Positions 7,250-61,557 of a stretch of DNA of 64,000 nt are shown piece after piece. Position 1 is the first letter of the stretch, and the number at the start of each line of letters is the position of its first letter. The notes under the pieces were generated by a model that worked only from the letters and a program-made list of their open reading frames with translations, had not been told where the DNA came from and did not search any database. A program made the position numbers and the translations under genes. The stretch is from Vicinamibacterales bacterium (lineage in GTDB: Bacteria; Acidobacteriota; Vicinamibacteria; Vicinamibacterales; UBA8438), in contig CBDAMZ010000009.1 in NCBI GenBank assembly GCA_965197375.1, positions 137,956 to 201,955 on the forward strand, given 5' to 3'.

Positions 7250-7267
7250 GCCAACCGTAAGATCTGC

Positions 7268-7310: not shown

Positions 7311-7409
7311 GTCTCTCCAGCTACAACTGGATCCGAGAGATGGTAGCGGCCGCCGCGTGGCTTAGCTAGATCCGTTCGCGGTTGCACCATCCTTACGTAG
7401 CATCAGACA

Positions 7410-9059
7410 CTAGCGATCGTCCCGATCTCGCTCTCCGCGCGCCCTGAAGAAGTTAATGCTGACGGTAGCCAGCTCAGACGGGGGGAATTTCGCCTGCAGC
7501 TGTTCATCGGCTATCAGACCCGCTTCGCGGGCGCATTCCAGAAAGACGTCGGGCTCGACGAGGTACTGGTCGGAATAGCCGTGCGTCGCGTCGTACGGCA
7601 CGGCAAGCGTCCGGCCGAGATTCGCGGCGATCCGCTCAGGCGGCAAAGTATGAAGCTCCAGGATCAATAATCCAAACCGCCCCGCATAGGGCGCCCAGCG
7701 ACGCAGGTGCCGCACCAGGTTTTCTTCCAACACGTCCGGGGGAATCTCTTGACCCAGAACAGCGAAGGCTCCCGTAGTTCGCGCTGTACGCGTCCCGGTA
7801 ACATAATCCTTCAGCGGTAGAAAGGGTCGGGTGTGGTCCAGGAACGAACGTACGTGCAGCAGCTCATGACTGACGATCTCTAGCTGCTCCAGATCGCTCG
7901 CCAGCTTGGCTGGCCGGTTAATGTCTCCATGGATCACGTAAAACTTAGGGATGTTCGCCTGGCGGAGGCGCCGCTTGGTAAGCCGACGGGCCACCTTATT
8001 GAAATCTGCTTCGACGAGGACCAAGGGATGCAACTCCAGCGCGTGCCCACGAACCGTTCCGTCCCGGATAACACCATAAAGGTGTTCCAACAACGTGCCG
8101 TCGCCGCAACCCATGTCGCAAATCCCGCACGGCTGCTCCTGTAGCGGCCGGTTAAAAATGTGGGCGACGATCTCGTCGATCTGGTGGAAGTACGTCTGGT
8201 GCGCACCGCCGCTTCCCCACAGATTCATGCCGCGGCTGACCAAAAGCTCTGTTCCGTGTTCATCGACCCGTGGGATCAACGCATTTCCGAACAGCAGTGT
8301 GCTGAGAACCTCAAGAAGCGGGAAGTAGGAAACCGTGACCCCGTAGGAAGTGGCAATCTGTAAGGCATATCGGCCCGCTGGAGTCAGGGAGATTCGTGTT
8401 TCATCACGGTTAGCCCATCCCTGCGCACAAAGCAGGTCAAAAACGCAGCTGAGGCACTCGCGGTTCCCCTCGATAGACGCGAGCTTAAGGCCCAGCGGGT
8501 CCTGGGTCATTCGGTCGAGAACGCCTTCGCGGGCCAGAGCAACCATGGTCGGGCCGACCAAGATCCCATCCAGGTGGCGCCGGAGCTTCTGCTGAACCTT
8601 TGCGGTAAGCGGGTCGCCAGCTTCTTGAAGTCCCCACCGTTCCCGCGCGCGCGACACCAGCGTGCGCAGTGAGGGAAGCAGGGCGTCGCCACCGTGACCG
8701 AAGAGGAAATCCTCCAGAAACATCGCTTTCGGTAAAAAGGGGAGGGCCTCACCATACGTCTGGGTCATCCCAATAGCGACGCGGCCCTCTGGCGTCATTG
8801 TGTAGCGGGTCGAATCACCTGACTCTTGCTTCAGCCATCCGCAGGAGACGGGCGCCCGAAACGCAACTCGAAGGTACCCGGGATTTCCATCCGTCAGACC
8901 GACGATCTCGGCGAGCGTGATCCCCTTGGAGGCCCCCTCAAGGATCTGGAAGACACCGCGATCCTGAAGGGCCTTCACCGTGGGGGCCAGCACGATTCCG
9001 GTCAGGTGATCGAAGATGACCGCCCGGACTATGGCTTTTTCTTCTCTGCTAAGTCCCAT
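7410..9059 (-). CDS. class I SAM-dependent methyltransferase with two N-terminal winged-helix/dimerisation-like modules
   Basis: 549-aa ORF. ICDMGCGDGTLLEHL is a SAM-binding motif I (DxGxGxG). VLVEADFN and VIHGDIN are acidic post-I/II motifs. The N-terminal ~280 aa are repeated helical modules, as in O-methyltransferase dimerisation domains. Confidence 0.7.
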   Translation of the reverse strand: MGLSREEKAIVRAVIFDHLTGIVLAPTVKALQDRGVFQILEGASKGITLAEIVGLTDGNPGYLRVAFRAPVSCGWLKQESGDSTRYTMTPEGRVAIGMTQTYGEALPFLPKAMFLEDFLFGHGGDALLPSLRTLVSRARERWGLQEAGDPLTAKVQQKLRRHLDGILVGPTMVALAREGVLDRMTQDPLGLKLASIEGNRECLSCVFDLLCAQGWANRDETRISLTPAGRYALQIATSYGVTVSYFPLLEVLSTLLFGNALIPRVDEHGTELLVSRGMNLWGSGGAHQTYFHQIDEIVAHIFNRPLQEQPCGICDMGCGDGTLLEHLYGVIRDGTVRGHALELHPLVLVEADFNKVARRLTKRRLRQANIPKFYVIHGDINRPAKLASDLEQLEIVSHELLHVRSFLDHTRPFLPLKDYVTGTRTARTTGAFAVLGQEIPPDVLEENLVRHLRRWAPYAGRFGLLILELHTLPPERIAANLGRTLAVPYDATHGYSDQYLVEPDVFLECAREAGLIADEQLQAKFPPSELATVSINFFRARGERDRDDR

Positions 9060-10559: not shown

Positions 10560-11771
10560 ATGCCCACGCGCCGCCTGACGCATCGCTTGAGTGCCGCATT
10601 CGTGCGCGCCGCCCCGCCCGGCTTCTACTGCGACGGCCACGGGCTGAACTTGCGCGTGGACCCGTCCGGGGCGCGGCGGTGGGTGCAACGACTGCTCATT
10701 CGGGGCCGGCCCCGCATGCTCGGGCTCGGCGGCTACCCGCTGGTGTCGCTGGCCGAGGCGCGCGAGGCGGCGTTCGCCCACCGCAAGCGAGCGCGGGCGG
10801 GCGGGGACCCGCTGACCGAGAAGCGTCATGCCCAGGGCCTCCCCACGTTCGAAGAGGCTGCCGCCGTGGTGCTGGCGCAGCAGCGGCTTGGCTGGCGAAA
10901 CGCCAAGCACGCCCAGGAATGGCCGCGCAGTCTGCGCGCCTATGCCTTCCCGCGCATTGGCGGAGTCCCCGTCTCCGAGGTGACCACGGCTGACGTGCTC
11001 CAGATCCTCACCCCCATCTGGCATGACAAGTCCGAGACCGCGCGACGGGTGCGGCAGCGAATCGGCGCCGTGATGAAGTGGGCGGTGGCGATGGGGTACC
11101 GGCCGGACAACCCGGCGGGCGAGGCCCTTGGGCAAGCCCTCGGCCGGCAGCAGGCCGTCGTCCGGCACATGCGGGCGCTGCCCCACGACGAGGTGGCGGA
11201 TGCCCTCACGACCGTGCGGACATCCAAGGCGTCGATCACCACCAAGCGTGCGTTCGAGTTCCTGGTGTTGACGGCGGCGCGGTCCGGCGAGGTGCGCTTG
11301 GCGACCTGGGCCGAGCTGGACCTGGACGCAGCCGTGTGGACCATCCCCGCCGCGCGCATGAAGGCGAATCGCGATCATCGCGTGCCGCTCTCCGCGCGGG
11401 CGGTGGCGATCCTCACCGAGGTGCGGGGACGAGGCGAGGGGACCGGTCTCGTGTTCCCCAGTCCGTGCGGGAAGCCACTCTCCGACATGACGCTGTCGAA
11501 GTTAATCAAGGAACTCGGCATCGCCGCCGTGCCACATGGGTTCCGGTCGAGCTTCCGGGACTGGGCGGCGGAGCGGACGAGTACGCCGCGCGAGGTCGTC
11601 GAGGTAGCGCTCGCCCACGCGGTGCGGAACCCCACGGAGGCGGCCTATGCGCGGTCAGATCTGTTCGCGCGCCGCCGCCGCCTCATGGAGGACTGGGCGG
11701 ACTACCTTCGTGGCGCGCACGGCCGCGTGGTGCCGCTTCATCGGGAGGCCCTCACGGTCGGTCCCGGGTGA
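10560..11771 (+). CDS. int: tyrosine-type site-specific integrase, P4/CP4-57-like (N-terminal DUF4102-type arm-binding domain)
   Basis: 403-aa ORF. The N-terminus GFYCDGHGLNLRVDPSGARRWVQRLLIRGRPRMLGLGGYPLVSLAEAREAA matches the DUF4102 pattern. Catalytic region: LTAARSGEV (Arg), HGFRSSFRDW (His-x-x-Arg), ALAH...AYARSDL (His/Tyr). Confidence 0.9.
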   Translation: MPTRRLTHRLSAAFVRAAPPGFYCDGHGLNLRVDPSGARRWVQRLLIRGRPRMLGLGGYPLVSLAEAREAAFAHRKRARAGGDPLTEKRHAQGLPTFEEAAAVVLAQQRLGWRNAKHAQEWPRSLRAYAFPRIGGVPVSEVTTADVLQILTPIWHDKSETARRVRQRIGAVMKWAVAMGYRPDNPAGEALGQALGRQQAVVRHMRALPHDEVADALTTVRTSKASITTKRAFEFLVLTAARSGEVRLATWAELDLDAAVWTIPAARMKANRDHRVPLSARAVAILTEVRGRGEGTGLVFPSPCGKPLSDMTLSKLIKELGIAAVPHGFRSSFRDWAAERTSTPREVVEVALAHAVRNPTEAAYARSDLFARRRRLMEDWADYLRGAHGRVVPLHREALTVGPG

Positions 11772-15492: not shown

Positions 15493-15858
15493 CTAGTAGT
15501 AGAAGGCGGCCAGTTCGTCCTCCGTGAATGGCGCGAGCAGCTCGTCGAGCGTCGCGGTGCGCGGTCGGAATTCTGGTTTGAGTGCTTCACCGGCCCACGG
15601 CGGAATCCCCGGTGGAAAACTGGCCAGAAAGTTGTCCCTGGCGATCTGTTCCCAGGTCCGGCCGTAGGGGCGACGAGGCTGCGGGAGTCCTTCGATCCGG
15701 TAGGCGACGTCGGGCATGAACTCCGGCCACTTCGCGCGGGCCTTCGCGCGCCAGCGGCGGAGGGTGCGCGTGGTGACCGTTTTGCGCGAACGGACGGGCG
15801 GCTTGGGCCAAACCTGGATCGAACTGTCCGGGAACTCGGCAATGTGGTCACTGGCCAT
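15493..15858 (-). CDS. conserved small protein of the 'YY-terminal' family (divergent paralog of 22675..23046 and 39022..39393)
   Basis: Track ORF 15493..15891. Start placed at M12 by alignment. WPEFMPDVAYRIEGLPQPRRPYGRTWEQIARDNFLASFPPGIPPWAGEALKPEFRP...EDELAAFYY aligns along its full length with the two 123-aa ORFs. Substitutions are mostly conservative, which argues for real coding sequence. Confidence 0.6.
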   Translation of the reverse strand: MASDHIAEFPDSSIQVWPKPPVRSRKTVTTRTLRRWRAKARAKWPEFMPDVAYRIEGLPQPRRPYGRTWEQIARDNFLASFPPGIPPWAGEALKPEFRPRTATLDELLAPFTEDELAAFYY

Positions 15859-16039
15859 GGGGTGTCGTCGGGTGTCATCGAAATATAGCAAATCGCATGG
15901 TCGTGTTGCGCACGATGTGCCAAACCTCTTGAGTGAAGCGAGCGGTCATGGCAAGCGGTTGATTACGCAGATCGACCTCATTCACAAGGAGTTGGACCAT
16001 GACCACTCGGAGCACGCGTCGCGCGAAGTCGGCGGGCGT

Positions 16040-16355
16040 CCGCAGCCCTGATCGGCCAGGACGGCGAGATGCTGAGACAGTTGATGCAGGAAGCCCTGCA
16101 GGAGGCGGTGGGCGCCGGCTCCGGCGAGCGGACAGCGGCGGGGCGGCTGGGCTATCGCGCGGCTACTACAGCCGCAGCCTAGTGACTCGCATCGGGAAGC
16201 TCGAGCTGCGGGTGCCGAGAGCCCGCGACGGGCGGTGTTCGCCCGAGCGGTTCGCCCAGTATCAGCGTTCGGAGAAGGCGCTGGTGAGCGCGCTGGCCGA
16301 GATGTCTGTGCAGGGCCGTATCGACGCGCACGGTCAAGGTGATCACCGACGAGCT
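16040..16355 (+). pseudogene. IS256-family (Mutator-type) transposase, N-terminal fragment with frame disruptions
   Basis: GYYSRSLVTRIGKLELRVPRARDGRCSPERFAQYQRSEKALVSALAEMSVQG...ITDELC matches the conserved N-terminal region of IS256 transposases. It ends abruptly where the truncated repeat copy begins. Confidence 0.7.
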
Positions 16356-16665
16356 GTGCCCAGGTCCGGCCGTCGGGGCGGCGGGAGCCCTTCGATCCGG
16401 TAGGCGACTTCGGGGAGACACTGCGGCCACGTCGCACGGGCCTTCGCGCGGCGCCGGCGGGAGGGTGCGCGGGGTGACGGTTTTGCGCGAAATCAGCGTC
16501 GTGGGCGGCCAGATCGCGATCGCGATGTCCGCCATCTCGCCTGTTTCATCAATGTTCATGGGGGGTCGTCCGGAAATTTCGAAATCGAATTTTGCGAAAA
16601 TGCGCGCAAGGGGGGGCGGACGGTCACGCGGCTCAGCCGGATGAGATTCGGGGGTGGGGGGGCGT
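16356..16665 (-). repeat. truncated, frameshifted copy of the ~1-kb repeat family (part of the leader plus the 5' part of the small ORF)
   Basis: Contains MNIDETGEMADIAIAIWPPTTLISRKTVTPRTL (ATG at 16559), then a frameshift and EVAYRIEGLP-like sequence. Upstream is the conserved leader segment AAATCGAATTTTGCGAAAATGCGCGCAAGGGGGGGCGGACGGTCACGCGGCTCAGCCGGATGAGATTCGGGGGTGGGGGGG. Confidence 0.55.
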
Positions 16666-17431: not shown

Positions 17432-19528
17432 ATGCAGGCGATCAACAAACCCTTCACGAAGATCATCAACGGGACCACTCAGTTTGTCATTCCGGTGTTC
17501 CAAAGAGACTACAGCTGGACCGAGTCGGACTGCGAGCAACTCTGGTCTGACATTCTTCGGGTTGCGGCAGACCCTTCTGACCGTGGCCACTTTGTTGGCT
17601 CGATCGTCTACATCTCCACGGGAGACTCTTCCGCCGGCTTCACTCGCTGGCTTCTCATTGACGGCCAACAACGGGTTGCCACGTTGACGCTTCTCTTTGC
17701 AGCACTTCGTGACCACATTCAGGACACCGGCTGGACGGGCACCGACGACGGTCCGACACCGGCCCGCGTCGACAGATACTTCCTCAAGAACCCAGACGAG
17801 CCGCCCGCCCGCAGACACAAGCTCGTGCTGCGCCGCCGTGACGAAGAAACCCTACAAGCACTTCTTGATGGCCAAGACCTGCCAGGAAACGCTTCCGAGC
17901 ACGTCCGAGACAACTATGAGTTCTTCCGCGAACAACTGGCAAGCGCAGACCCAGAAGTGGTGTATCGAGGCATCGCACAACTGATTGTCGTTGATGTGAC
18001 ATTGCAGCGAGGACTCGATGATCCCCAACTGATTTTCGAGAGTCTCAATTCAACCGGCGTCGACCTGAGTCAGTCCGATCTCATCCGCAATTTCATCCTG
18101 ATGCGATTGTCGGAGCCAGAACAGACGCGGCTCTACGAGATGTACTGGAGCAAGATCGAGAATCTGTTTCGAGGATCGGAGCAAGTATTTGACGCGTTCG
18201 TGCGAGATTTCATCGCTCTGGAGACACAACCACGCAAGCAGAGGAAAGCCAACGAGATATACTCGGCGTTCCGGCCTGTATTCCGAGCGCTCGGCTCCGA
18301 TCCTGACGCCCTCGACTCCTTTCTTCAGCGCCTCCTGCGTTTTGCGCGTTACTACGCAGCGTTCAGCATCGGAGTGGGCGCCCCGGAAGTGCTCCGTCAG
18401 TTCCTAGCTCGACTTCGCAAACAAGTCGATGTGCCGGCTACGCTCGTGATGCGTTTATATGACTACTACGATGACCGCAAGACGCTGACGGAGACCGAGT
18501 TTCTAGAGGCTCTCAGACTGCTAGAAAGCTATGTGTTCAGACGCGCCATCTGCGGCGAACAAACCCGCGGCTATTGACAGGTCTTTGCCAACCTCGCTTA
18601 CCGACTCAACCCTGACAAGCCCCTTGAGAGTCTTTCGGTCGGACTGGCTTGCCAGCGAGACAACTATCGATTTCCAAGCGACGATGAGTTCCGCACAGCC
18701 TTGGAGGAGAGAGATCTCTATGGAAGGCGCGTGTGTTTTGACTTGCTTGACCGCCTTGAGAATCACGGTAACCGAGAACCGACCGACACAAGCAGATACT
18801 CAATCGAACACGTCATGCCGCAGAACGAGCAACTCCCTCGGGAATGGCAGGAGATGCTCGGGGAACAATGGCCTGAAGTGCACCGCCAGTGGCTGCACCG
18901 ACTGGGAAATCTCACGCTCACCGGCTACAACAGCGTCTACTCGGACCGACCCTTCAGCGAGAAGAAGACGATCGCGGGCGGTTTTGCTGACAGCTCGGTT
19001 CGGCTGAACCGGTTCATTCGCGAGAGCCGAGTGTGGACAGCGGCCAAACTTGAGCAACGCGGAAAAGACCTCGCCCACCGAGCGCTATCGATCTGGCCAC
19101 CCTTGGTCGTTGACAGTGTTCTCATTGATGCTGCTAAGCAGGAAGAGATGCGAAACTTGGCCCGGCGTCGCGATGTGGCCAGTGTGGAGATGAGTTCACG
19201 AGCACGCGAGCTCTTTGATCTCATCCGCACAAATATTCAGGACATTGACGAGGACATCATCGAACTCGCCGAGCAGAAGTCAGTCAGCTATCACGGACCG
19301 GCGTTCTTTCTGGAAGTCCTCATGAGGAAGCACGATATTAACCTCCTCCTCGCGCTGGACTTCAATGAAGTTGAAGATCCGGCTGGTGTTGCGTTGGATG
19401 CATCACAGCGGAAGTTTTTCGTTTGCGCTGCCCACGATGGCGGCGTCAACATTATCATTCGCGAGCCCGCGGACGTCGACAAGGCGATGCCTTTGGTGCG
19501 TCAGGCGCACGCGGTTGCATCTGCCTGA
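17432..19528 (+). pseudogene. GmrSD-like DUF262 (ParB-like NTPase/nuclease) + DUF1524 (His-Me finger) type IV restriction-family gene, interrupted by one in-frame TGA
   Basis: ORFs 17432..18577 and 18701..19528 are in the same frame. DUF262 motifs: FVIPVFQRDYSW and LLIDGQQRVATL. DUF1524 motifs: YSIEHVMPQN and HRLGNLTLTGYN. The sequence between them reads GY-TGA-QVFANLAYRLNPDKPLE... with no other stop. Confidence 0.8.
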
Positions 19529-21426: not shown

Positions 21427-22270
21427 CTACCGGAAGGCGCACCGGACGCGCACACCAGCCCGTCGCGGGGCGAGCACGTTCACAAAGTAGCGGCGCGACC
21501 GGAAGCCGTCCTCCGAGCGACCGATGTGCCCGGGCGTCTGGCGCACGCCGGTCACCGCGTACGCGTCGAACAGGTTGTCGCCGTAGACCGTCAGGGTCCA
21601 GGCGTCCTTTGAAAACGACGCCGACAGGGTGTGGAGGTCGTAGGCCGGCAGCAGCTCGCCCCCGGGGCGCATCCCGATCCGGGTGAGCACGTCGCCGGTG
21701 TAGCTGTAGCCGTACTGCAGCTCGACGGCGCCGTCGCCGCCGAGCCACGTGGCATAGGATAGGAGGCGAGCAGGCTCCCCGCCGTTCAGGGTGATCGGCT
21801 CCGCACTGAACGGGGTGAGCCCCTCCACCTGGATATCGGTCTAGTCGACGTGGAACAGCGTGGCGCTGAGCGTGACCGTTCGTCGCGCCATGAGCGGCGC
21901 AGCCCCACCTCGTAGTTGATCCTCGTGTCCGGTCGGATGAACGCCTGATCGGCGTAGATGCAGCCGGATTGCGGCGAGTCGTTGCTGGCGTCGGCGTTGG
22001 TGAGCAGAGCGATCTCCTCGTCGGTGCAGACCCGGAAGTTGTTGTCGCCGCCGATGCGGTACCCCCTCCGATCGGGTGACGTAGGCGTACGTCTCGTCGT
22101 CGAACCGGTAGCTGACGCTTCCCTTGAAGAGGACGCCGCGGTCGTCGGACACGAACTCGCTGAAGGGTGAGTTGTACCTCGGCGTGTACGGGAACTCGGT
22201 GAGGCTGCCGGTCGCGAGGCCGTAGCCGAACCAGCGGCCGCCGCCCGTCACGCGCCACCGGTCCAGAACC
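21427..22270 (-). pseudogene. TonB-dependent receptor, C-terminal barrel fragment with frameshifts, N-terminally truncated by the repeat element
   Basis: ORF 21427..21828 reads ...LTVYGDNLFDAYAVTG...FVNVLAPRRAGVRVRCAFR (TBDR C-terminal strands). A further piece, RWFGYGLATGSLTEFPYTPRYNSPFSEFVSDDRGVLFKGSVSYRFDDETYAYV, lies in another frame (21841..22290 region). Confidence 0.6.
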
Positions 22271-23306
22271 GGATCGTCGCCTCCGTGGCCCCGGAACGCA
22301 GGGGTGGACGGACAGGTGGCGACCGCCCCACACAGGGAGCACAGCCCGTGCGTTGCGGTGAACGGCCCGTCGTCCATCCGGGTCGGATTCGTCCCATGCG
22401 GATGGGGGTGGCCCAGTCGAACCGGCGGGCTCGCCGGTGAGGGACACCGCGGCGACCGGGCCACGACGGTGCAGCGGCCACGCGGCGCTGCCACGTGCGG
22501 GAGTACTCGTGCTACGTCCGCCCGCGCCCCCACGGATGACCGTCCGAGTCGACGGTGAGCCACACCCCGGCGCCGATGAGCCGTGAACGACGGCATCTCT
22601 CCATCGCACACGGGCGATCGCGCCGCCCGCGGGAACAGCCCGGTCACCGTAGGACCTCGGGCGTGTACCCGTGCTTAGCAGTAATACCTAGCGAGTTCTT
22701 CTTCCGTGTACTCGGCGAGGATCTCCTCGAGGCTGATGGCCTTTGGGCGGTATTCGGGTCGGTAGGCTTCACCCGCCCACGGCGGGATGCCGGTGCCGGC
22801 GGAAAAACTGGCCAGAAAGTTGTCGCGGGCGACCTCGGCCCAGCTCCGCCCGTGGCGGCGTTTGGGTTGCGAGAGGCCTTCGATGCGGTAGGCCACATCG
22901 GGCATGAACATCGGCCACTTCGCCCGGGCGACAGCGCGGCGGCGGCGCAGCGTCCTTGGGACGAAAGTTTCACGTAAGTTTACACTCGTTTTCGGCCAGT
23001 TCTGTATTTCGGTGGCCGGGGTGAAGCACTTTTTATCAATGTTCATAGAGGTCTCCTGTACAAAATCCTAATCGAATTTTGCGAAACTGCGCGTGAAGGG
23101 GGGCGGACGGTCACGCCGCTCATCCGGACGAGATTCGGGGGTGGGGGGGTACGGCGCACGCCGAGCCGTTGGTGTCGATACCTCCACACTCGCGGTCGCG
23201 GCGGGCGTCGAGGTCGTTTCGTTTCTGACCAGTTCGGCCGCAAGTTCGCCGACGAGAACAACGTGGCCCGAGGCACCTCAGAAATGAGATTTTGATTTTC
23301 CTAGAG
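22270..23306 (-). mobile_element. unclassified ~1.0-kb repeat element, full copy (3' non-coding ~400 nt + 123-aa ORF + ~260-nt leader)
   Basis: Near-identical at DNA level to 38615..39649 over the whole length, with unrelated flanks (TBDR fragment/integrase fragment here versus unknown/DUF4145-like there). The sharp common right terminus ...CACCTCAGAAATGAGATTTTGATTTTCCTAGAG is also shared by the truncated copy ending at 27938. No terminal inverted repeats seen. Left boundary +/- 15 nt. Confidence 0.55.
22675..23046 (-). CDS. conserved 123-aa protein of the repeat element ('YY-terminal' family), function unknown
   Basis: MNIDKKCFTPATEIQNWPKTSVNLRETFVPRTLRRRRAVARAKWPMFMPDVAYRIEGLSQPKRRHGRSWAEVARDNFLASFSAGTGIPPWAGEAYRPEYRPKAISLEEILAEYTEEELARYYC. 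AGGAGA lies ~8 nt upstream of the ATG. Protein-level conservation with 39022..39393 and 15493..15858. Confidence 0.65.
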   Translation of the reverse strand: MNIDKKCFTPATEIQNWPKTSVNLRETFVPRTLRRRRAVARAKWPMFMPDVAYRIEGLSQPKRRHGRSWAEVARDNFLASFSAGTGIPPWAGEAYRPEYRPKAISLEEILAEYTEEELARYYC

Positions 23307-23573
23307 ATCGAGGCCCTAGCACGGCGACGGGCGCGCCGCGACCCCGCCAGCCCGCTCGTCTTCCACCGCGACGGCATCCCCGTCCGGCGCTGGCGCACGA
23401 CGTGGCGCACCGCCTGCCAGGCGGCCGGGGTGCCGACCCGCTTCCTCCACGATTGCCGGCGCACCGCCGCCCGTAACCTGATCCGCGCCAGCGTCCCCGA
23501 GCGGGTCGCCATGCTCCTGACCGGACACAAGAGCCGCGCCATCTTCGACCGCTACAACATTATTAACGATTAA
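23307..23573 (+). pseudogene. tyrosine recombinase/integrase, C-terminal fragment (N-terminus replaced by the repeat element)
   Basis: ...PLVFHRDGIPVRRWRTTWRTACQAAGVPTRFLHDCRRTAARNLIRASVPERVAMLLTGHKSRAIFDRYNIIND carries the H-x-x-R and GH...Y catalytic C-terminal box. The usual tail (NEQELLDAGDQLVEYL) continues in another frame after the stop. Track ORF 23292.. starts inside the repeat end. Confidence 0.75.
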
Positions 23574-27599: not shown

Positions 27600-27938
27600 A
27601 GCACCGGTGAAAAGACGGGTATTGTCGGCCAGATCCGGATCGACGTGTCCGCCCACGGGCTGTTTTTCTCAATATTCATGGGGTCTCGTCAAAACATAGC
27701 AAAATCGAATTTCGCGAAACTGCGCGTGAAGGCGGGCGGACGGTCACGCCGCTCATCCGGACGAGATTCGGGGGTGGGGGGTACGGCGCACGCCGAGCCG
27801 TTGGTGTCGATACCTCCACACTCGCGGCCGCGGCGGGCGTCGAGGTCGTTTCGTTTCTGACCAGTTCGGCCGCAAGTTCGCCGACGAGAACAACGTGGCC
27901 CGAGGCACCTCAGAAATGAGATTTTGATTTTCCTAGAG
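27600..27938 (-). repeat. truncated copy of the ~1-kb repeat (complete ~260-nt leader + first ~25 codons of the small ORF)
   Basis: 27680-27938 matches the leaders at 23047-23306 and 39394-39649 almost base for base, including the terminus ...GATTTTGATTTTCCTAGAG. ATG at 27679 opens MNIEKNSPWADTSIRIWP, then homology is lost. Confidence 0.6.
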
Positions 27939-28124
27939 GATCGAGCCGTCATCGTCCGCATGCGATTCCACCAACCAACCCGCGACGACGTCGCCCGACG
28001 CACCGCCGATGGCCGGACCACACGCGAGATCATCCGATGCCTGAAACGCTTCCTTGCGCGAGAGATCTACCAACGCGTCATGACAGACTTCCGCAGACGC
28101 CAAGCCGTCACCCAGGCCGCTTAA
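27939..28124 (+). pseudogene. IS110-family transposase, C-terminal fragment
   Basis: DRAVIVRMRFHQPTRDDVARRTADGRTTREIIRCLKRFLAREIYQRV matches the conserved IS110/IS116/IS902 C-terminal tail (R..AEGK...E..RCLKR..AR..Y). It starts directly at the repeat terminus. Confidence 0.7.
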
Positions 28125-28166: not shown

Positions 28167-28862
28167 ATGAACATGCACTGGCGTCCCGACGTTCATTCAG
28201 CCACTTGCGTCGATATTCCTGTAGTCGTCGCAACGCACCCTCCAATGGCCCACAAAGACTGGAAGGCGGCTCAAGAGCCGTGGGGATCTTCCGACTACAC
28301 AGACGATTCGGCGTTCGGCCAGTACGCTCGACTCGCCAAGACGGGAAGGTTCAGGTTCCCGAAGGGTGGACAGGCACCGTACTGGTTTGGCGAATTCCAT
28401 GCGGGCCTGCTGCTAGATCGTGCAGGTTTCACGTGTTGGACCAATGTGCAGTTGTTCGATCACCGAAAACCGAAGCGCGGCTTCTGGTTGAAGAACACGG
28501 ATGAAGTCCGGGGGAAGTGGCCTCAGGCATGGAAGTGGCCCGGTGATATTCAGCAAACGCTGGACTTTCTACCAAGGACACCTGACCTTGTAGCGCGCCA
28601 CCCACGGAAGGGCTGGCGGTTCTGTGAGGTAAAGCGCCTCAAGGATCGAATCAACAACGACCAAGTAAGGGCCCTTGCCGTACTGCACCTGCTGACCGGC
28701 GCACCCGTGGCCATCGTCCGGGTGGTGCCGGAGGGAGAACGGACCGACTGGGCACCGTGCGAGGCCCTGCTCACGTACCAAAATGGTGTTCACCCGCCAT
28801 GGTTTCGGCGAACTAGCCGCACAGTGGGCTCCACGCTGACGTCCGCTCTACCGGACAGTTGA
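28167..28862 (+). CDS. VRR-NUC-like PD-(D/E)XK nuclease domain protein
   Basis: 231-aa ORF. TPDLVARHPRKGWRFCEVKRLKDRINNDQVRAL fits the VRR-NUC core (PDL...EVK...D.l...Q). The start is uncertain (alternative M27 at 28245). Confidence 0.6.
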   Translation: MNMHWRPDVHSATCVDIPVVVATHPPMAHKDWKAAQEPWGSSDYTDDSAFGQYARLAKTGRFRFPKGGQAPYWFGEFHAGLLLDRAGFTCWTNVQLFDHRKPKRGFWLKNTDEVRGKWPQAWKWPGDIQQTLDFLPRTPDLVARHPRKGWRFCEVKRLKDRINNDQVRALAVLHLLTGAPVAIVRVVPEGERTDWAPCEALLTYQNGVHPPWFRRTSRTVGSTLTSALPDS

Positions 28863-29276: not shown

Positions 29277-32200
29277 TTGACCGACCCCTTCATCGCTCAA
29301 CTCGCCCAGCTTTGCCAAGACAGTCCAACCCGCTCGAAGTGGGTCATCGTCCCCACCCATGCCCTCGGGCACACCATCGGCGATCGTCTTGTCCTTGAGG
29401 GAACCCACTGGGCGAATCTCCGCTTCAAGACGCCGTTCGACTTGGCCTTCGAGCTCGCTGGCCCTTGTCTCGCTGAACGCGGCATCGACCCGGCGGCGGA
29501 CGACTCCGGCCCGGCGCTGATCATGAGCCTCCTCCGCGAACTGCCGGATGACATCCCTGCATACTTCAGGCACCTCGTGTTGCATCCGCAAATGGGCTCG
29601 GCGCTGTGGACCACCGTTCGTGAGCTGCGACTCGCCGGGATCGCTTCGAGCGACGTTGCACCCGACGGGTTTGAGAACGCTGACAAACATGCCGAGCTGG
29701 TCGCGCTCCTTGCGGCCTTCGAGGCACATCTTGCGTCACGACGTCTCGCCGATCGCGCGACGGTCTATCGCGAAGCGCTGCAGCATCTAGAGGATTCCGC
29801 GATCGGCCCGGAGGATCCGGTTCTTCGCATGCCGGACGTCATCTGGGCCCCGCTGGTTCAGCAGCTCCTGGACGGCCTTCCAGGTCAGTGCATCGAGCCG
29901 ATTGCGCCTCGAATACCTGGCTCGCGGCGCCCGCGCCGCTTCGCCGAGGTTCCGGCACGCGAGCAGGCGGTCTCATTTCCACTGGCATACCTGTTGTCTC
30001 CGACTGAGGTTAGTGAGCCGGCCTCGCCCGATCAGCTCCAGCTGTTTCGCGCCGGCGGTCGAGAGGCCGAAGTCGAAGAGGTGTTTCGACGGATCCTCCA
30101 TGGTGACAAGGGCTCACTGAGCTTCGATCACGTCGAGATTGCCTGTTCGTCTCCCGACTACGTGCCTCTGATCTGGCAGAAGGCACAGCGATACGAGTGG
30201 CCGATCACGTTCGCTCCTGGACTGCCTGTCACGGTTGCACGTCCGGCACGAGCGCTCCTGGCCTGGTGCGACTGGATAGAAGAAGGATTTCCCGCGAGCG
30301 GTCTTCGTCGCCTGTTTCAGTCTGGCGATGTGCGACTCGAGATTCCCGATGGGCCCAAGGCCGGACGTGCGGCCCGACTGCTGCTGCGCGCGGAGGCAAC
30401 ATGGGGACGTCAGACGTACGCGTCGCGACTGACGGCTCTCGCAGCCACGGAGCGCACCCTGGCCGCCGATCCAGAAGTCGAAACCGATGAAGCCGTGCAC
30501 CGGCTCGAACGAGCGGTACACGCCGAACAACTGCGCGACTGGATTACGGCCCTGCTCGTAGCCATTCCCGAAGCCTCAACGACAGCACCGGTCTCTCTGC
30601 TCGACGTCGTGACCGCAGCACACGCGTTCATCGACCGTTTTGCGACGACGTCAATAGAGATGGACCGTCAGGCCAAGCATGCAGTGAAGGTTGCTCTCGA
30701 CGAACTTAGAACGCTGGGGCAGGTGTCGCAGCCGACACGTGAGTGTTTGCAGTTGATTCGAGCGTCACTGGAAGGGGTGACCGTCGCCCCCGACCGCGCA
30801 CGGCCAGGGCACCTCCATGTGACGATGCTGCAACGTGCCGGTTTCGCTGGTCGGCCACACACCTTTGTCGTCGGGCTCCAGGAAGGCCGCGTGTTTCCGC
30901 TCCCCGTTGAAGACCCGGTCTTGCTCGACGCTGAGCGCGAAACGATTCACCCGTCACTCGCCACGTCACTTGACCGCGTCGAGGAATCGGTGCACACCGT
31001 GGTGTCGAGAATGGCGGTCCTTGGCGCAGGCGGCGCTGCGTCACAATCGGGCCTCGCGGTCTCGTCCTGGACCCTCTCGTACTCCTGTCGTGACCTGCGC
31101 GACTATCGCGAGACGTTCCCGTCGTGGCTGATGCTGCAGGCGAGACGCTTGCGGGACCCACAGCGGGAGATCACGTACGAGCAACTGGGCCGCGACCTCG
31201 GCGAGCCGGTCTCGGTGGTACCTCGCACTGGCGAGGCGGCTTTATCGGATGCCGGGTGGTGGTTGAGCGGCCTCCAGAAGGTGGGCAACGCAGGACTTGA
31301 ATCGCTATTCGTGGCCTATCCGATGCTCGCCCGAGGGCTGCAGGCCGAGCACGAGCGAGCGTCGACTCGATTTACGGAGTTCGACGGCTTTGTTCCAGCC
31401 GCGGCCGCCCAGCTCGATCCCCGACAATCGGGTCGCCCGATCTCGGCCAGTAAACTCGAGGGGTTGGCGGCGTGCCCGTTTCGCTACTTCTTGCAGGTCG
31501 GTCTCCGGCTGCGGCCACTGGACGACGAGGACCGCGATCCAGACGAGTGGCTCGACCCGCTCATCCGAGGTGGTGAGCTCCACGCGCTCTACGCCGACGT
31601 GATGCGCCAGCTCCGACAGCTGTCGGACACCGGCGAGCCAGTCGACCCGCGCCGCCAAACGGCATGGCTCCGGCAGCGGGCCCTCGCCCGCCTCGAGATT
31701 CTGAGAAGCGAGCGACCGCCACCATCGGACGCTATCTTCGAGCGCGACCGCGATCAGATACTGCGTGACCTCGAGCTGTTCTTGGCATACGAAGCGGTCA
31801 ATCGTGCCGACGGGCACGAACCCGTCGGGTTCGAGGTCGGATTCGGTCTATCGCACGGCACATCCGATACCGCCGAGCCTCTCAGCCGAGCCGAGCCGGT
31901 GGAGCTCGCCTTGGGTGCGCTCCGCTTTCGTATCCGGGGCCGGATTGACCGAATCGATCGCATCGGTCCGGGACACTACGAAGTCACCGACTACAAGACA
32001 GGGTCGTTCTTCCGGCCGGCCTACACAGGCACCTTCAACGGAGGGCGCCTCCTGCAGCACGCGCTGTATGGCATCGCCACAGCGGACCTGCTGCGGGCAC
32101 ACGACAGCAGCGCCATTGTCAGCACAGGCACGTACTACTTCCCCAGCCAACAAGGTGGTGGGCAAAAGAAGCGGATTCCGCATCCACCTCAAGCCACGTT

Positions 32201-32450
32201 GGCGCAAGTGTTTACAGATCTACTCGACATTCCTGGCGCAGGAGCGTACCTGCACACGGCGGACGAGGAAGACTGCCGGTTCTGTGAGCTGTCTGCTGCA
32301 TGTGGGGGTAAGCGCAAAAAGGGAACCGGTCCGAACCTCGAGAAGGCCCCGGCCGCCCGTGCACATGCAAGGACGAAGCTGAAGGCGGCCATGGCGGGCG
32401 ACATCAACGACGCGCTGAAACCGTTTCTCCGGGTGCGTGAATGTGATTAA
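29277..32450 (+). CDS. AddB-like PD-(D/E)XK nuclease subunit (degenerate helicase-like N-terminal region, C-terminal nuclease with Fe-S cysteines)
   Basis: 1057-aa ORF (TTG start). No Walker A seen. The C-terminal nuclease core is RIRGRIDRIDRIGPGHYEVTDYKTGS. The cysteine set LAACPFRYF ... EEDCRFCELSAACG resembles the AddB iron-sulfur staple. It overlaps the next gene by 14 nt. Confidence 0.8.
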   Translation: MTDPFIAQLAQLCQDSPTRSKWVIVPTHALGHTIGDRLVLEGTHWANLRFKTPFDLAFELAGPCLAERGIDPAADDSGPALIMSLLRELPDDIPAYFRHLVLHPQMGSALWTTVRELRLAGIASSDVAPDGFENADKHAELVALLAAFEAHLASRRLADRATVYREALQHLEDSAIGPEDPVLRMPDVIWAPLVQQLLDGLPGQCIEPIAPRIPGSRRPRRFAEVPAREQAVSFPLAYLLSPTEVSEPASPDQLQLFRAGGREAEVEEVFRRILHGDKGSLSFDHVEIACSSPDYVPLIWQKAQRYEWPITFAPGLPVTVARPARALLAWCDWIEEGFPASGLRRLFQSGDVRLEIPDGPKAGRAARLLLRAEATWGRQTYASRLTALAATERTLAADPEVETDEAVHRLERAVHAEQLRDWITALLVAIPEASTTAPVSLLDVVTAAHAFIDRFATTSIEMDRQAKHAVKVALDELRTLGQVSQPTRECLQLIRASLEGVTVAPDRARPGHLHVTMLQRAGFAGRPHTFVVGLQEGRVFPLPVEDPVLLDAERETIHPSLATSLDRVEESVHTVVSRMAVLGAGGAASQSGLAVSSWTLSYSCRDLRDYRETFPSWLMLQARRLRDPQREITYEQLGRDLGEPVSVVPRTGEAALSDAGWWLSGLQKVGNAGLESLFVAYPMLARGLQAEHERASTRFTEFDGFVPAAAAQLDPRQSGRPISASKLEGLAACPFRYFLQVGLRLRPLDDEDRDPDEWLDPLIRGGELHALYADVMRQLRQLSDTGEPVDPRRQTAWLRQRALARLEILRSERPPPSDAIFERDRDQILRDLELFLAYEAVNRADGHEPVGFEVGFGLSHGTSDTAEPLSRAEPVELALGALRFRIRGRIDRIDRIGPGHYEVTDYKTGSFFRPAYTGTFNGGRLLQHALYGIATADLLRAHDSSAIVSTGTYYFPSQQGGGQKKRIPHPPQATLAQVFTDLLDIPGAGAYLHTADEEDCRFCELSAACGGKRKKGTGPNLEKAPAARAHARTKLKAAMAGDINDALKPFLRVRECD

Positions 32451-35400
32451 GTCCACGGCCGGGCCGAACGGTCAGGTCCCGCTGCCCGACAAGGCCAGTC
32501 GAGACGTCATCGAGCGAAACCTCGACGTCAATATGCTCGTTGAGGCCGGGGCGGGTTCAGGCAAGACGCAGAGCCTCGCCACTCGGATGGCGGCTGGTGT
32601 TCTGTCCGGAAAATATCGTGTCGAGCACATGGCGGCGGTCACATTCACCCGAAAGGCCGCGGCAGAGCTGAGGGGACGATTTCAGCAGGTGCTCGAGGAG
32701 CGTCGTGCCTCCGAAGAGGATCCCGACCGGCGACAGCGCGCGCAGGAGGCGCTGTCTCGCCTCGAGCGTCTCTTTGTTGGAACCATCCACTCGTTTTGCG
32801 CCCATCTCCTCCGGGAGCGTCCGGTCGAGGCGGGACTCGCGCCTGGGTTCGCCGAGCTTGATGACGTCGGCGCCATCGAGTCCAGGCAGCAGCTCTGGCG
32901 AGCGTTCATCGCGCGTAAGCGAGCCGAGGGAGGCGCACTGCTCCCCGAACTGCGCGATGCCGGGATCAGAGCAGGCGATCTCGACCATGCCTTCGCGACG
33001 ATCTGCACATTCGACGAGGTCGAGTTCCCAGCTGGCAACGCACCAGCACCGGACCCGACGCCGGCGTGGGCGGCCCTCGACCGTTTCTGGCAGCAGCTGG
33101 ACCCGCTGCTCCCTCGCAGGATTCCAGACGACACGACGTGCAAGGTCCTCCAGAAGGCTCGAGACGGCCAGTGGCAGATCAGGATCGCGAGACGAGACCA
33201 CCCGGCCGACCTGGTTGATCTGGTTGCGCCGTGGGAAGGCGCCTTCCGGATCACGATGAGCCGCTGGACGGAGTGGCACGAAGATCCCCGCCAGCTGCGC
33301 GAGGACATCGACCGGATGCTTGCCGACCTCCGGGCAGCTATCGGACCATTCCTCGAGGCATGGCGTCACTACGTCTACCGCCTCGCCATCACGCTCATGG
33401 TCCAAGGCCGGGAGTTTGCCCGTGCGCATCGATACCGGGCGTTGACGCTGGAGTACGAAGACCTCCTGCAGTGCGCCGCCCGCGTGCTCCGCGAGAACCT
33501 CACGGTGCGGCGGGCCTTGCAGCAGAAGTACCAGTGGCTTTTCGTCGATGAGTTCCAGGACACCGACCCGATTCAAGCCGAAGTGGTGGCCTGGCTGGCC
33601 AGCGACGGGCGCGACGCATCCGACTGGACGACCGTGTCTCTCCGGCCGGGCGCGTTGTTCATCGTCGGCGACCCGAAGCAGTCGATCTACCGCTTTCGTC
33701 GGGCTGACATCGAGATCTACAGTCGGGTGAGCGAACTCATTCACCAAAGCGGGGGAAGTCTCGTTCCACTCGCAGCCAACTTCAGAGCAACACCGCTCCT
33801 CTGCCAGTGGGCCAATGGTGTGTTCAAGGACGTGTTCCCCGACGTCCCGACGCCCCAGCAACCGCAGTATCAGAGGCTCGAGCCAGCGCCATCATTCGAC
33901 ACCAACCAGTCTCCTTCGCCGAGTGGCAGAACCACGGGCATTCGCGTCCTGACCACGCCGAGTACTTGTCAGAAGGCCGCAGACGTTGTCGCACACGATG
34001 CCGGGGCCATTGCCCGCTACATTCACGCTGAGATTGACGCCGGGAATCGGCAGCTTGGTGATTTTTTGGTCTTAACGTGGAAGAAGGGCAACCTCGCCGA
34101 GTACGCACGGGCGATGGATGCGGAGCGTGTACCCGTGGAGGTGAGCGGCGCCAGCGCGTTCGGTGACTCCGAACAGGTGCACGTACTCGCCGCCTTGCTC
34201 CGGGCGCTAGTGGATCCGGATGACGAGGTTGAGGTTGTTGGCGTGCTGCGCGGACCGTTGTTCGGCGTGAGTGACCCTGCGCTCTATGCTCATCGCAGCG
34301 CGGGAGGCACGTTCATCTTCACGGCCGTCCCGCTCGAGGACGGCCCGACGACACAGGCTGAATCCAGCGTCATCCGGGCGCTCAGTCGCCTGCGTGCGAT
34401 GTACCACATCACCCGGACGCTGTCGGCTCCCGCGGCAGTCGAGCGCATCCTGGAGGACACGGGGTTACTGGCGCTGACGGTCGGCGAGACACGCGGAGGC
34501 GCGAAAGCTGGCGACCTGTTCCAGGCGTTGGACCGGGTTCGCTGGGTCACCGAGGAAGGTGGCACGCTGGCCGACGCAGCCGCGTCGCTGGAGGCTGATG
34601 TCGAGTCGAACGACATCGAGTCGTTACCCCTCGAACCAGGCCGAACCGACGTCGTGCGCCTGATGAACCTTCACAAGGCCAAGGGGCTTCAGGCTGAAGT
34701 CGTCTTCCTCGCTGATCCCTGCGGCACCTTCCTGCCCAAGGCTGACCGACGGATTGTTCGTGACGGCGAGTCTGCTCTCGGTTTCCTCAGGATCGAGCGG
34801 AAGAAGCCAGGGAGCTTTCACGGGCAGTTGTTGGGCCTTCCAGTGGGGTGGGATGCACACGAAGCGGCCGAACTCGCGTTCGTCGCCGCCGAGCACGAGC
34901 GGTTGCGATACGTGGCGGCGACCCGCGCGCGGATGCTTCTGGTTGTCAGCCGTTGGGGGAAGCCCAATGTCAGGAAGGGCCCCTGGCTGCCGTTCGAGCC
35001 ACACCTTGCTGGGATGGCTGAGCTTCAGGTGCCGACAGAAGTCAGTGAACCCACGCTGGTCAGTGTCGACCTCTCGCCGAAGGCGATCGAGGAGGCCGAC
35101 TACGCGAGAGTCCGCCGCGTCCTCAAGGGGGCTGAACTGTCGTTCACCACTGAGTCGGTCACGGGCGCCACTCACCGCGACGTCGTCGTTCGGGAAGAGG
35201 ATTCGGCGCGGTTACTCCGTGGACCCGCCACAGGCATCGAGTGGGGTGACCTCGTCCACAAGCTGCTTGAGTGTGCGGCGACGACCGGCCAGCCGGATCG
35301 GGAGCGGCTACGGCGTCGAGCAACGTGGTTGACGCGCGGAAAGCCCGCGCTTCAATCCGTCATCACCGCCACCCTCGATACCGTCGAGCAGGTGATGACA

Positions 35401-35721
35401 AGCGACATGTGGCAACGAGCACTGCACGCCGACGAACGCTACACGGAGGTACCCTTCTCGTACTCAATCGAGGCGAAATCTGGACAAACGAAGATCACCC
35501 ACGGCGTGATTGATCTGGCCTCTCGACGCGGCAATACATGGGAAATCGTGGACTACAAGACCGACCAAGTGGATGATCCTGCGGAGCTGACGGCTCGGTA
35601 TCACCAACAACTCACTGCGTATGCGCGCGCGTGGAAGACACTCAGAGCTGACGAGAGCCGTGTTCGAGTCGGCTTGCATGCCGTTCGTCTCAACTCCACC
35701 GAGTGGCGTGATGCCGTCTAG
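32437..35721 (+). CDS. UvrD/Rep-type SF1 helicase with C-terminal PD-(D/E)XK nuclease (AddA-like)
   Basis: 1094-aa ORF. Motifs: LVEAGAGSGKTQSL (Walker A), FVDEFQDTDPIQ (motif II), VGDPKQSIYRFRRAD (motif III), VRLMNLHKAKGLQAEVVFL (motif V/VI region), and the C-terminal nuclease GVIDLASRRGNTWEIVDYKTDQV. Confidence 0.85.
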   Translation: MNVIKSTAGPNGQVPLPDKASRDVIERNLDVNMLVEAGAGSGKTQSLATRMAAGVLSGKYRVEHMAAVTFTRKAAAELRGRFQQVLEERRASEEDPDRRQRAQEALSRLERLFVGTIHSFCAHLLRERPVEAGLAPGFAELDDVGAIESRQQLWRAFIARKRAEGGALLPELRDAGIRAGDLDHAFATICTFDEVEFPAGNAPAPDPTPAWAALDRFWQQLDPLLPRRIPDDTTCKVLQKARDGQWQIRIARRDHPADLVDLVAPWEGAFRITMSRWTEWHEDPRQLREDIDRMLADLRAAIGPFLEAWRHYVYRLAITLMVQGREFARAHRYRALTLEYEDLLQCAARVLRENLTVRRALQQKYQWLFVDEFQDTDPIQAEVVAWLASDGRDASDWTTVSLRPGALFIVGDPKQSIYRFRRADIEIYSRVSELIHQSGGSLVPLAANFRATPLLCQWANGVFKDVFPDVPTPQQPQYQRLEPAPSFDTNQSPSPSGRTTGIRVLTTPSTCQKAADVVAHDAGAIARYIHAEIDAGNRQLGDFLVLTWKKGNLAEYARAMDAERVPVEVSGASAFGDSEQVHVLAALLRALVDPDDEVEVVGVLRGPLFGVSDPALYAHRSAGGTFIFTAVPLEDGPTTQAESSVIRALSRLRAMYHITRTLSAPAAVERILEDTGLLALTVGETRGGAKAGDLFQALDRVRWVTEEGGTLADAAASLEADVESNDIESLPLEPGRTDVVRLMNLHKAKGLQAEVVFLADPCGTFLPKADRRIVRDGESALGFLRIERKKPGSFHGQLLGLPVGWDAHEAAELAFVAAEHERLRYVAATRARMLLVVSRWGKPNVRKGPWLPFEPHLAGMAELQVPTEVSEPTLVSVDLSPKAIEEADYARVRRVLKGAELSFTTESVTGATHRDVVVREEDSARLLRGPATGIEWGDLVHKLLECAATTGQPDRERLRRRATWLTRGKPALQSVITATLDTVEQVMTSDMWQRALHADERYTEVPFSYSIEAKSGQTKITHGVIDLASRRGNTWEIVDYKTDQVDDPAELTARYHQQLTAYARAWKTLRADESRVRVGLHAVRLNSTEWRDAV

Positions 35722-36312: not shown

Positions 36313-37970
36313 TTAAGGAACCTGGTGCGCCTCGTGCCACTCCCGCGCGCGGCGGTTTGCCTCGCTTATGTCCGCTGGCGTCATCTGTGCGGCTACGCCG
36401 TTGCGCGCGGGCTCCGTCCGCTCGCGCGCCTTACCAGTTGACCGGAAATCGGCAAGGATATGCCACATGAGGGCTTCGACGTTGTCCTGCGGGACGCCGT
36501 TGCCGGTGGCGTAACTCACCCCAAGGGTGTTCTGCGCGTCGGCGTGGCCTTGCTCAGCGGCTTGGCGGTGCTAGGCGACGGCTTCGGCGGCATCCTGCGG
36601 GACGCCGTTGCCGGTGGCGCAACTCACCCCAAGGTTGTTCTGCGCGTTGGCGTGGCCTTGCTCAGCGGCCAGGCGATGCCAGACCACGGCTTCAACGTCA
36701 TTCTGCAGGACGCCCCGGCCATTGGCGTACATCGTCCCAAGGTTGGTCTGCGCATCGGGATCGCCCCGCTCAGCGGCCAAGCGGTACCAGGCGACAGCTT
36801 CGGCGGCATCCTGCGGGACGCCCCGGCCCTCGGCGTACATCCCCCCAAGGTTGGTCTGCGCTTCGGGATCGCCCCGCTCAGCGGCTAGGCGGTACCAGGC
36901 GACAGCTTCGGCGGCATCCTGCGGGACGCCGTAGCCCTCGGCGTACATCACCCCAAGGTTAAACTGCGCCCTGGCGTCGCCCTGGTCAGCGGCCAAGCGG
37001 TACCAGGTACCGGCTTCAACGTAATCCTGCGGGACACCGTTACCGGTGGCGTACATCACCCCAAGGTTAAACTGCGCGTCGACGTCGCCCTGGCCTGCTC
37101 AGCGCTGGCGCGCAGGGCGGCGACCCTTGCTGCGGCGGGCCAAATATTTCCCCCGCCCACCTCGCCTTCCCAGTACTCCTTCGGGCTCGCCTCAAATCGC
37201 TCGTCGTCATTCTTTAAGTCAATACCCCCTTCGTCAGCGCCATCGTCCAGGTTCTCAAGAGCCGCACGGATTGTCCGGACAGTGGCGTCGATGATCGCGA
37301 ACCATTCCGGGCCATGTGTGACCAACGGGTCAAGGCGCGGAATACCCTTGTTCGGGCTCTCGCTTGTCGCCACCTGTTCCCATTCCTTGCCCGACGGTGC
37401 GCGGAACCTGCGGCGAGTAGCGCCCGGAATCAGGGCAGCGACCTGGTCCAGGTAGCCCTGGTAAATAGATGCGTCGAGCCCGAGCTTTTGAACGCGTCGA
37501 GAAAATCGTTGCGTACTCGATAGCCTTCCTCTCCAGCTGAGCTGCCCAAGCGTGAAGCTGTGGCCGGCGTCGGCGTCTTCGTATTTCAGTAGTGGACCTG
37601 CATCACCCCACGCGATCGTTAGGTCGTGTGCGGAGGCTTGCTCAATCACCCATCTTGCGAACACGACGACCTCTGGTGAGCTCGTTGTGGATAGCCGCTT
37701 GAGGAAATCAGCTTCCTTTCTTTCTTCCGTCTTTAATCTCATCAGCCGATTCAAATTCATCCACTTGATACCCTTCTCGTGTCTGTGTCGCGCCACAACG
37801 TCATCCGGCAGAATCTGAACGTTCGTTCCTACGGCAGTGGTGAGCCTGCGTTGTCCTTCAAGTGACAGTTCTACATACGCAGCCTCACCGTTTGGCATCT
37901 TTGTCTCAGCAAGCGCTGGCCGCAGTTCGGTAGGTAGTTCCGTACCCGCCTGATCGGCTTTCTTGATCAT
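36313..37970 (-). pseudogene. Sel1-like repeat (SLR) protein with ~295-aa unknown N-terminal domain; disrupted by one frameshift and one in-frame TAG
   Basis: Start placed at MIKKADQ (M47 of ORF 37056..38108, GGAGGA ~7 nt upstream). The frame switches near 37085-37100 (...ALRASAEQ then GQGDVDAQFNLGVMYATGNGVPQD). SLR units follow (AVAWYRLAAERGDPEAQTNLGGMYAEGRGVPQD, repeated). The TAG at 36571-36573 replaces the Trp of the AVAW motif, and the same frame continues to 36313. Confidence 0.7.
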
Positions 37971-61540: not shown

Positions 61541-61557
61541 TATGGGGCGTCGCTCTA

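Follow-up and report, generated by a model that had tools for sequence, protein, structure and literature searches.

A 64,000-nucleotide (nt) stretch of the genome of a Vicinamibacterales bacterium (GenBank assembly GCA_965197375.1, contig CBDAMZ010000009.1, positions 137,956 to 201,955), referred to here as the window, contains a repeat family of approximately 1 kb, all copies of which lie on the minus strand, the sense strand of their open reading frame (ORF). The repeat is probably (at a probability of approximately 0.7) a derivative, lacking a transposase, of the IS91-family rolling-circle elements found in Vicinamibacterales (Acidobacteriota), and owes its spread to Y2 transposases acting in trans. 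Its sharp terminus is an origin end (oriIS) of the IS91 family, its insertion sites follow the target rule of that family, and the same terminus is found on elements with Y2 HUH transposases in related genomes. An initial annotation of the window, made from the sequence alone, had proposed a new element resembling an insertion sequence (IS), or a recombination module of unknown mechanism; the terminus contradicts that proposal, and the parallel view of the repeat as a non-autonomous mobile element stands. The IS91-type origin end is already known. What is new here is the conserved module riding on such an origin in Acidobacteriota, which consists of a leader and an ORF of 121 to 123 codons (ORF121 for the family; ORF123 for the 123-amino-acid (aa) protein of the window).

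IS91-family and ISCR elements are of importance because one-ended rolling-circle transposition moves adjacent genes, and they are poorly characterized outside Proteobacteria. The locus presents an IS91 subfamily of Acidobacteriota in which the sequence itself reveals the origin end, together with a transposase-less module that reaches at least 10 copies in one genome (the OZ244656 chromosome, in two clusters) while its leader stays very conserved and its orphan protein under selection, and with apparent capture of neighboring DNA. It offers a system for studying trans-mobilization, origin-proximal accessory proteins, and gene shuffling in the defense islands of soil bacteria. For annotation, it accounts for repeats of a "hypothetical 121-aa protein" and for truncated genes in Vicinamibacterales metagenome-assembled genomes (MAGs).

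The origin end and its target sites

The terminus of the window repeat reads ...TTTTCCTAGAGAT up to the junction with the flanking DNA. Its last 21 nt are present at three places in the window and in none of 100 shuffles, in agreement with the sharp common terminus of the initial annotation, which had been placed 2 nt too far inward. The correction comes from alignment with the origin ends of genuine Escherichia coli elements, IS91 (locus L016) and an IS1294-like element (L017). On the bottom strand, written as flank/end, these read CTTG/ATCGATAGGAATTTAAAT for IS91, GTTC/ACGTATAGGAAATTGAAAAA for the IS1294-like element, and CTCG/ATCTCTAGGAAAATCAAAAT for the window units. According to this alignment, the AT is the element's own and the four bases preceding it are the target; the three element ends accordingly lie at 23308, 27940, and 39651. 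The sequence ATC..TAGGAA..T.AAA is thereby common to the window units and to the IS91 family (IS91, IS801, and IS1294; HUH-Y2 transposases). In a circular form, the 3′ end would be joined to ATCTCTAGG....

The first approximately 26 nt of this end, ATCTCTAGGAAAATCAAAATCTCATT, differ by no more than one or two substitutions across the ORF121 units and three Y2-transposase elements, one of which has approximately 85 nt in common with the leader. At locus L014, a second terminus with the same first approximately 27 nt is located approximately 300 nt beyond the stop codon of a Zn_Tnp_IS91 and Y2_Tnp gene that points at it. The 26-nt end stands 220–300 nt past Y2 stop codons in L014, L019/L020, L022, L023, and L026, and the arrangement is also reported for L021; an origin end downstream of a tnpA gene that points at it is likewise the arrangement of the IS91 family. 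The Y2 genes at these loci match PF04986 (2.9e-32) and PF14319 (3.9e-18), and the L014 Y2 protein, over 97% of its length, shares 31–34% identity with IS91-family transposases of E. coli. A Y2 element abuts the unit in the same orientation in three of six distinct ORF121 loci, at three different junctions. At E ≤ 1e-40, the Y2 subfamily counts 1417 relatives or more, compared with 58 for ORF121.

The autonomous acidobacterial relatives differ from IS91 in being larger modules, with further genes around the Y2 gene (L014 11940–16511, L019 10629–15628, L020 992–6069, and L023 ~1–7453). The conserved modules of L014 and L019/L020 comprise an integrase, a 246–248-aa protein, AlpA/HTH_17, a ParB-like protein of 281–308 aa, the Y2 tnpA, and oriIS; in L023, genes for a ParB-like protein, an MT-A70 methyltransferase, and a LexA-like protein lie upstream of the Y2 gene.

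Insertion sites were compared in 30 distinct copies. The flanking tetranucleotide is GTTC in eight, CTCG in seven, and CTTG in six (21/30), at a joint background frequency of 1.7% for the three (P = 5.6e-31), and T occupies its second position in 28 of the 30 (P = 5e-19); positions −5 to −10 outside the end are unconserved. Since the published rule for IS91 is insertion after GTTC or CTTG, followed in preference by CTCG, where the second base is always T and the target is not duplicated (PMC13181058), the excess of the three tetranucleotides and the second-position T match the flanks of the units to that rule. Four comparisons of filled and empty sites, which involve paralogous units rather than orthologous sites, place the insertion exactly after the tetranucleotide with zero duplication. 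A repeat search of the window found no inverted repeats at the unit ends, as initially annotated and as in the IS91 family. In JGI metagenomes, the exact 31-nt end gave no match and a looser 26-nt pattern recovered five ends, all of which fit the tetranucleotide rule; no such ends were found in IMG/VR.

A target of the IS200/IS605 type (T-Y-N-A-T, compare TTGAT), suggested by the five bases just upstream of the terminus as initially placed, was also considered and rejected, as the IS91/IS1294 ends and the filled/empty pairs resolve the five bases into an IS91 tetranucleotide and the element's AT. Members of the IS200/IS605 family have a Y1 HUH TnpA, a left end at a TTAC/TTGAT-type motif, and subterminal hairpins; ORF123 has no Y1_Tnp match, and no robust subterminal hairpin was found at the unit end, so that this family was rejected as well.

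Copies in the window and the conserved unit

The features of the window that belong to the repeat family are as follows.

23309–23312 (−): target tetranucleotide flanking copy 1, CTCG (CGAG on the plus strand)
23283–23308 (−): oriIS-type terminal sequence of copy 1, aligned with the IS91 and IS1294-like oriIS ends
23047–23308 (−): highly conserved leader of copy 1 (~262 nt, non-coding), including oriIS and a poly-C tract of variable length
22675–23046 (−): ORF123 of copy 1 (ORF121 family), orphan basic helical protein of 123 aa
22272–22674 (−): co-duplicated neighboring DNA of copy 1, outside the conserved unit, including the start of a TonB-dependent-receptor-like gene
23313–23573 (+): integrase C-terminal fragment beyond the copy 1 target, directly after CTCG
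38616–39651 (−): copy 2, whole (oriIS and leader, ORF123, co-duplicated DNA)
39394–39651 (−): oriIS and leader of copy 2
39022–39393 (−): ORF123 of copy 2, 123 aa
38616–39021 (−): co-duplicated DNA of copy 2
39652–39655: tetranucleotide TTCA flanking copy 2, followed by the DUF4145 gene
27609–27940 (−): copy 3, consisting of an oriIS that carries a 1-nt indel, the leader, and approximately 22 ORF codons; flank CTCG, then the IS110 transposase fragment
16350–16662 (−): degenerate copy without oriIS, comprising the 3′ part of the leader and the N-terminal half of the ORF
15493–15891 (−): divergent ORF paralog of 132 aa, first gene of an operon

Comparison by blastn within the window confirmed two nearly identical full copies with unrelated flanks (22272–23311 and 38616–39654, 93.2% identity over 1045 nt), as well as the truncated copies and the divergent paralog described initially. 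The leader of copy 3 matches at 93.7% (27663–27945), and comparison with the other copies moved the start of copy 3 out to approximately 27609. The degenerate copy, truncated at both ends, matches at 71% (16350–16662) and the paralog at 73% (15509–15765). The gene fragments said to abut the terminus were all verified: at copy 1, a truncated gene (23292–23573, +) corresponding to positions 92–167 of the 172 of the Phage_integrase profile; at copy 2, a gene with a DUF4145 match (39635–40033, +); and at copy 3, a truncated gene (27942–28121, +) with 73% identity to residues 299–358, the last 60 aa, of a 358-aa IS110 transposase. The idea of an in-frame fusion, in which an outward "MIFLE" frame runs into the flanking gene, holds in all three window copies and was rejected because it fails in most of 18 copies elsewhere.

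The degenerate copy adjoins an apparent IS256-family transposase N-terminal fragment, as judged from its translation by eye. The operon headed by the paralog continues with ORF2-like, Zn-ribbon-like, 220-aa, AlpA, 450-aa, and DUF3631 genes and heads towards the integrase at 10560–11771. Another assembly of the copy 1 locus, L013, is 99.7% identical to the window over 10.7 kb; the two diverge completely 60 nt past the unit terminus, within the integrase fragment (window 23368, L013 9679), which reflects either a strain-level rearrangement or an assembly join.

The 1.03-kb unit of the initial annotation is duplicated in the window and is a composite. What recurs across Vicinamibacterales genomes is the first approximately 640 nt on the ORF strand, i.e., the sharp 5′ end with oriIS, the leader of approximately 260 nt, and ORF121. 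The remaining approximately 400 nt are common only to the two full window copies and locus L001, where the distal approximately 97 nt are placed elsewhere and inverted, beside a TonB-dependent receptor N-terminal domain; on these grounds, they are neighboring DNA that moved with the unit. The genomic relatives are all Vicinamibacterales MAGs. The origin end is constant in all copies, copy extents range from 53 nt to more than 3 kb, and units are nested head-to-tail in a single orientation. The DNA past ORF121 varies: a TIR-domain gene (L018), a 473-aa gene (L004 and L014), receptor upstream DNA (the window), or else the rest of an operon encoding a small helical ORF2, a Zn-ribbon protein, a protein that appears VRR-NUC-like by eye, ORF3, and a ParB-like ORF4 (PHROG 620, 5e-13). 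In related genomes, ORF121 thus opens a longer operon that lies directly inside oriIS. The possibility that the unit is part of some larger known IS, which would count against the initial proposal, is borne out in part.

Two arrangements elsewhere were recorded. In L018 (7905–9603), the gene of a 432-aa TIR-domain protein (TIR_2, 7.5e-20) stands directly behind one ORF121 unit and ahead of another, so that a defense-type TIR gene is placed as "cargo" between two origin ends. In L009 (4738–5388), two origin ends face each other; the second is a 53-nt fragment that ends in GTTC, followed by a short local duplication, and abuts an IS110 transposase C-terminal fragment; together with copy 3, this makes two IS110 genes cut short where a unit ends.

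The leader is highly conserved. Its median p-distance is 0.09, compared with 0.28, and values of up to 0.58, for the synonymous distance (pS) in the ORF next to it, corresponding to divergence approximately threefold slower than that of synonymous sites. A poly-C tract (C7-10 A C5) is present at approximately 23128–23142 of the window and at the equivalent position in all leaders; its length differs between copies in what looks like slipped-strand variation, and the variable length rules out a conserved ORF across the leader. No sigma-70 consensus was found in the leader. Three further candidates were discarded, namely an IS110 bridge-RNA-like leader, an integron-like cassette, and a Helitron: the unit contains neither a DEDD transposase nor an attC-like repeat, and Rfam gave no match.

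Each full copy contains one plausible ORF, and the claim of selection on its protein was upheld: the ratio of nonsynonymous to synonymous substitution rates (dN/dS) has a median of 0.40 among 12 intact copies, which indicates purifying selection. ORF123 falls outside the described families, as initially stated; it has no match in Pfam, NCBIfam, or PHROGs and no relative among PDB sequences (profile search) or PDB structures (Foldseek). A word-indexed search yielded 58 clusters of ORF121 relatives, all unnamed, and an exhaustive HMMER search of 1.84 billion representatives yielded only 37, all within the same small family. The AF2 model is helical and of low confidence (pLDDT 58). The C-terminus carries a conserved YYY and a conserved Cys pair is lacking; the invariant columns include no His and no Asp, and hence no HUH or DDE-type signature. 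ORF121 is not a transposase. It is probably an accessory or regulatory DNA-binding factor, encoded by the first gene of the parent element's operon; no ORF121 homolog was found encoded inside the Y2 elements.

IS91 itself has an accessory protein of approximately 121 aa, Orf121 (Fauconnier et al., 2026; PMC13181058), which lies on the side of the termination end (terIS), is translationally coupled to tnpA, and carries a CxxC motif. ORF123, by contrast, lies just inside oriIS, at the opposite end, without a linked tnpA and without a conserved Cys pair, and the two show no sequence similarity (BLASTP of L016 761–1126 against ORF123, E = 20). That the two are equally long is coincidental or, at the most, points to a functional analogy, in which case IS91 Orf121 may be a possible functional analog of ORF123 as a regulator of Y2 transposition or termination.

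Proposed mobilization in trans and competing explanations

On the ORF strand, the proposed anatomy is a target tetranucleotide (GTTC, CTTG, or CTCG), oriIS, the leader, ORF121, and then variable genes or captured DNA. A Y2 HUH transposase encoded elsewhere would nick between the tetranucleotide and oriIS, and the strand would be displaced by rolling-circle replication through the leader and ORF121. Termination would be imprecise, amounting to one-ended transposition, as no dedicated terIS is evident, and the product would reinsert on the 3′ side of a further tetranucleotide, with neither inverted repeats nor a duplicated target. Such a mechanism would produce a constant sharp origin end, a ragged other end, co-mobilized flanking DNA, nested arrays of the same orientation, and host genes truncated at the origin end. 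Since neither the unit nor the window includes an HUH-Y2 gene, the unit is at most a non-autonomous derivative. IS801 provides an experimental precedent, in which miniature fragments with the ori end are mobilized together with adjacent DNA by a transposase supplied in trans (PMC3189936); because the constant ori end, the variable other end, and the co-mobilized DNA match those experiments, we infer that the units are non-autonomous, oriIS-bearing derivatives that Y2 transposases disseminate by rolling-circle or one-ended transposition. The IS801 fragments differ in being random truncations of the IS itself, whereas here a specific leader and ORF121 module is conserved, selected, and multi-copy across genomes, and a tetranucleotide rule at the 3′ end is not evident in the ORF121 units. 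The units likewise differ from IS91-family elements in their acidobacterial host, in the absence of a transposase and a recognized terIS, and in that a conserved leader and an inward-reading orphan ORF, rather than the 3′ end of tnpA, lie inside oriIS.

Several observations weigh against mobilization in trans by Y2 transposases. A tblastn search with the L014 Y2 protein found no Y2 transposase gene within the window. No truly orthologous empty site was found, and no clear tetranucleotide rule emerged at the 3′ ends of truncated copies, where identities of 75–90% blur the breakpoints. In the IS91 family, terIS comprises a GC-rich subterminal hairpin and, after it, the cleavage tetranucleotide. 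No terIS was recognized: the E. coli-type hairpin GCAGCC-N4-GGCTGC, present in L016 and L017, is absent near the units, whose 3′ ends are ragged. The conservation of the 260-nt leader exceeds the need of oriIS alone; the oriIS of IS91 is said to have been put at 81 bp by Mendiola and colleagues in 1994. Some arrays are inherited as blocks between genomes, and therefore not every copy is an independent insertion; recombination and decay explain part of the distribution. Finally, most genomic IS801 fragments have been attributed to rearrangement rather than to one-ended transposition (PMC3189936; Bardaji et al., 2011).

These last points belong to a different, rather improbable account, in which a single larger integrative or rolling-circle element, with an origin-proximal operon headed by ORF121, has left the copies behind as decayed remnants. 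Their multiplication and truncation would then be due mainly to recombination, deletion, and the insertion of other IS in mobile islands, rather than to mobilization in trans as discrete units. The longer operon of the related genomes, the arrays common to genomes as blocks, the lack of a tetranucleotide rule at the 3′ ends, and the many copies that adjoin other IS fragments all speak for this account, as does the published verdict on most genomic IS801 fragments. However, more than 25 different 5′ flanks each meet the end exactly after a canonical IS91 tetranucleotide, for which rearrangement alone is insufficient, and units are nested in one another at such tetranucleotide sites. The same precision bears on the notion that the main role of the leader is that of a structured non-coding RNA or a regulatory element, on either strand, with the ORF as its regulated gene and the repeat as a regulatory module unconnected with mobility. 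The leader is far more conserved than synonymous sites, and its antisense strand folds slightly better than shuffles (z = −1.46), both of which speak for it; but the sharp end and the tetranucleotide rule would then be left unexplained, the sense strand folds worse than shuffles, covariation among 25 leader sequences is approximately zero on both strands, and Rfam 15 has no match to the leader or the 3′ region at the gathering threshold or even at E ≤ 1. The single-sequence folds are unremarkable, and this explanation is very unlikely. An autonomous minimal IS, with the 123-aa protein as a new kind of transposase or recombinase, might be suggested by the sole ORF of the window copies, its purifying selection, and its conserved C-terminal YYY. 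It is highly improbable given the invariant columns without His or Asp, the low-confidence helical model without structural or sequence relatives, the precise end kept in leader-only copies without the ORF, and the fact that both the end and the target rule belong to Y2 transposases; in related genomes, these transposases are present nearby with the same end.

Within the preferred reading of a transposase-less IS91-family derivative, a more speculative step, tentatively offered as a possibility, is that the leader and ORF121, more than debris, maintain themselves as a satellite of Y2 rolling-circle elements and would be the bacterial equivalent of non-autonomous Helitrons. The satellite would keep oriIS, an extra conserved control region of approximately 175 nt, and an orphan protein acting on the helper transposase or the origin, and would repeatedly capture and shuffle neighboring host DNA (the TIR-domain gene, receptor 5′ regions, and truncated genes) in defense and mobile islands. 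Non-autonomous Helitrons are similarly rolling-circle hitchhikers without a transposase, which capture host gene fragments and outnumber or accompany autonomous elements. The likeness is one of analogy only, as Helitrons have a RepHel transposase, eukaryotic hosts, and defined 5′-TC and CTRR-3′ ends with a 3′ hairpin.

The surrounding island

The repeat copies lie in a larger island. An inverted repeat of approximately 1 kb (10593–11591 and 62917–63902, 83–85% complementary) corresponds to two tyrosine-integrase genes, one full (10560–11771, +) and one partial (63237–63893, −), which bracket approximately 52 kb rich in mobile and defense genes. These include GmrSD (17432–19528), a VRR-NUC gene (28167–28862), an AddAB-like helicase-nuclease pair (29277–35721), and IS1595 (41622–42599). 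A second, unrelated direct repeat with a spacing of 4076 nt joins 57297–57596 to 61373–61672 (97%) and 58205–58368 to 62281–62444 (87%). Its 121-aa ORFs, at 57570 and 61646, were considered as members of the ORF121 family and rejected; they come from this unrelated repeat and are probably spurious, with the look of antisense frames. Four tandem 108-nt repeats (36450–37073, 75–80% identity) lie in the gene of a Sel1/TPR-like repeat protein (36571–37059, −) and represent ordinary protein-repeat periodicity.

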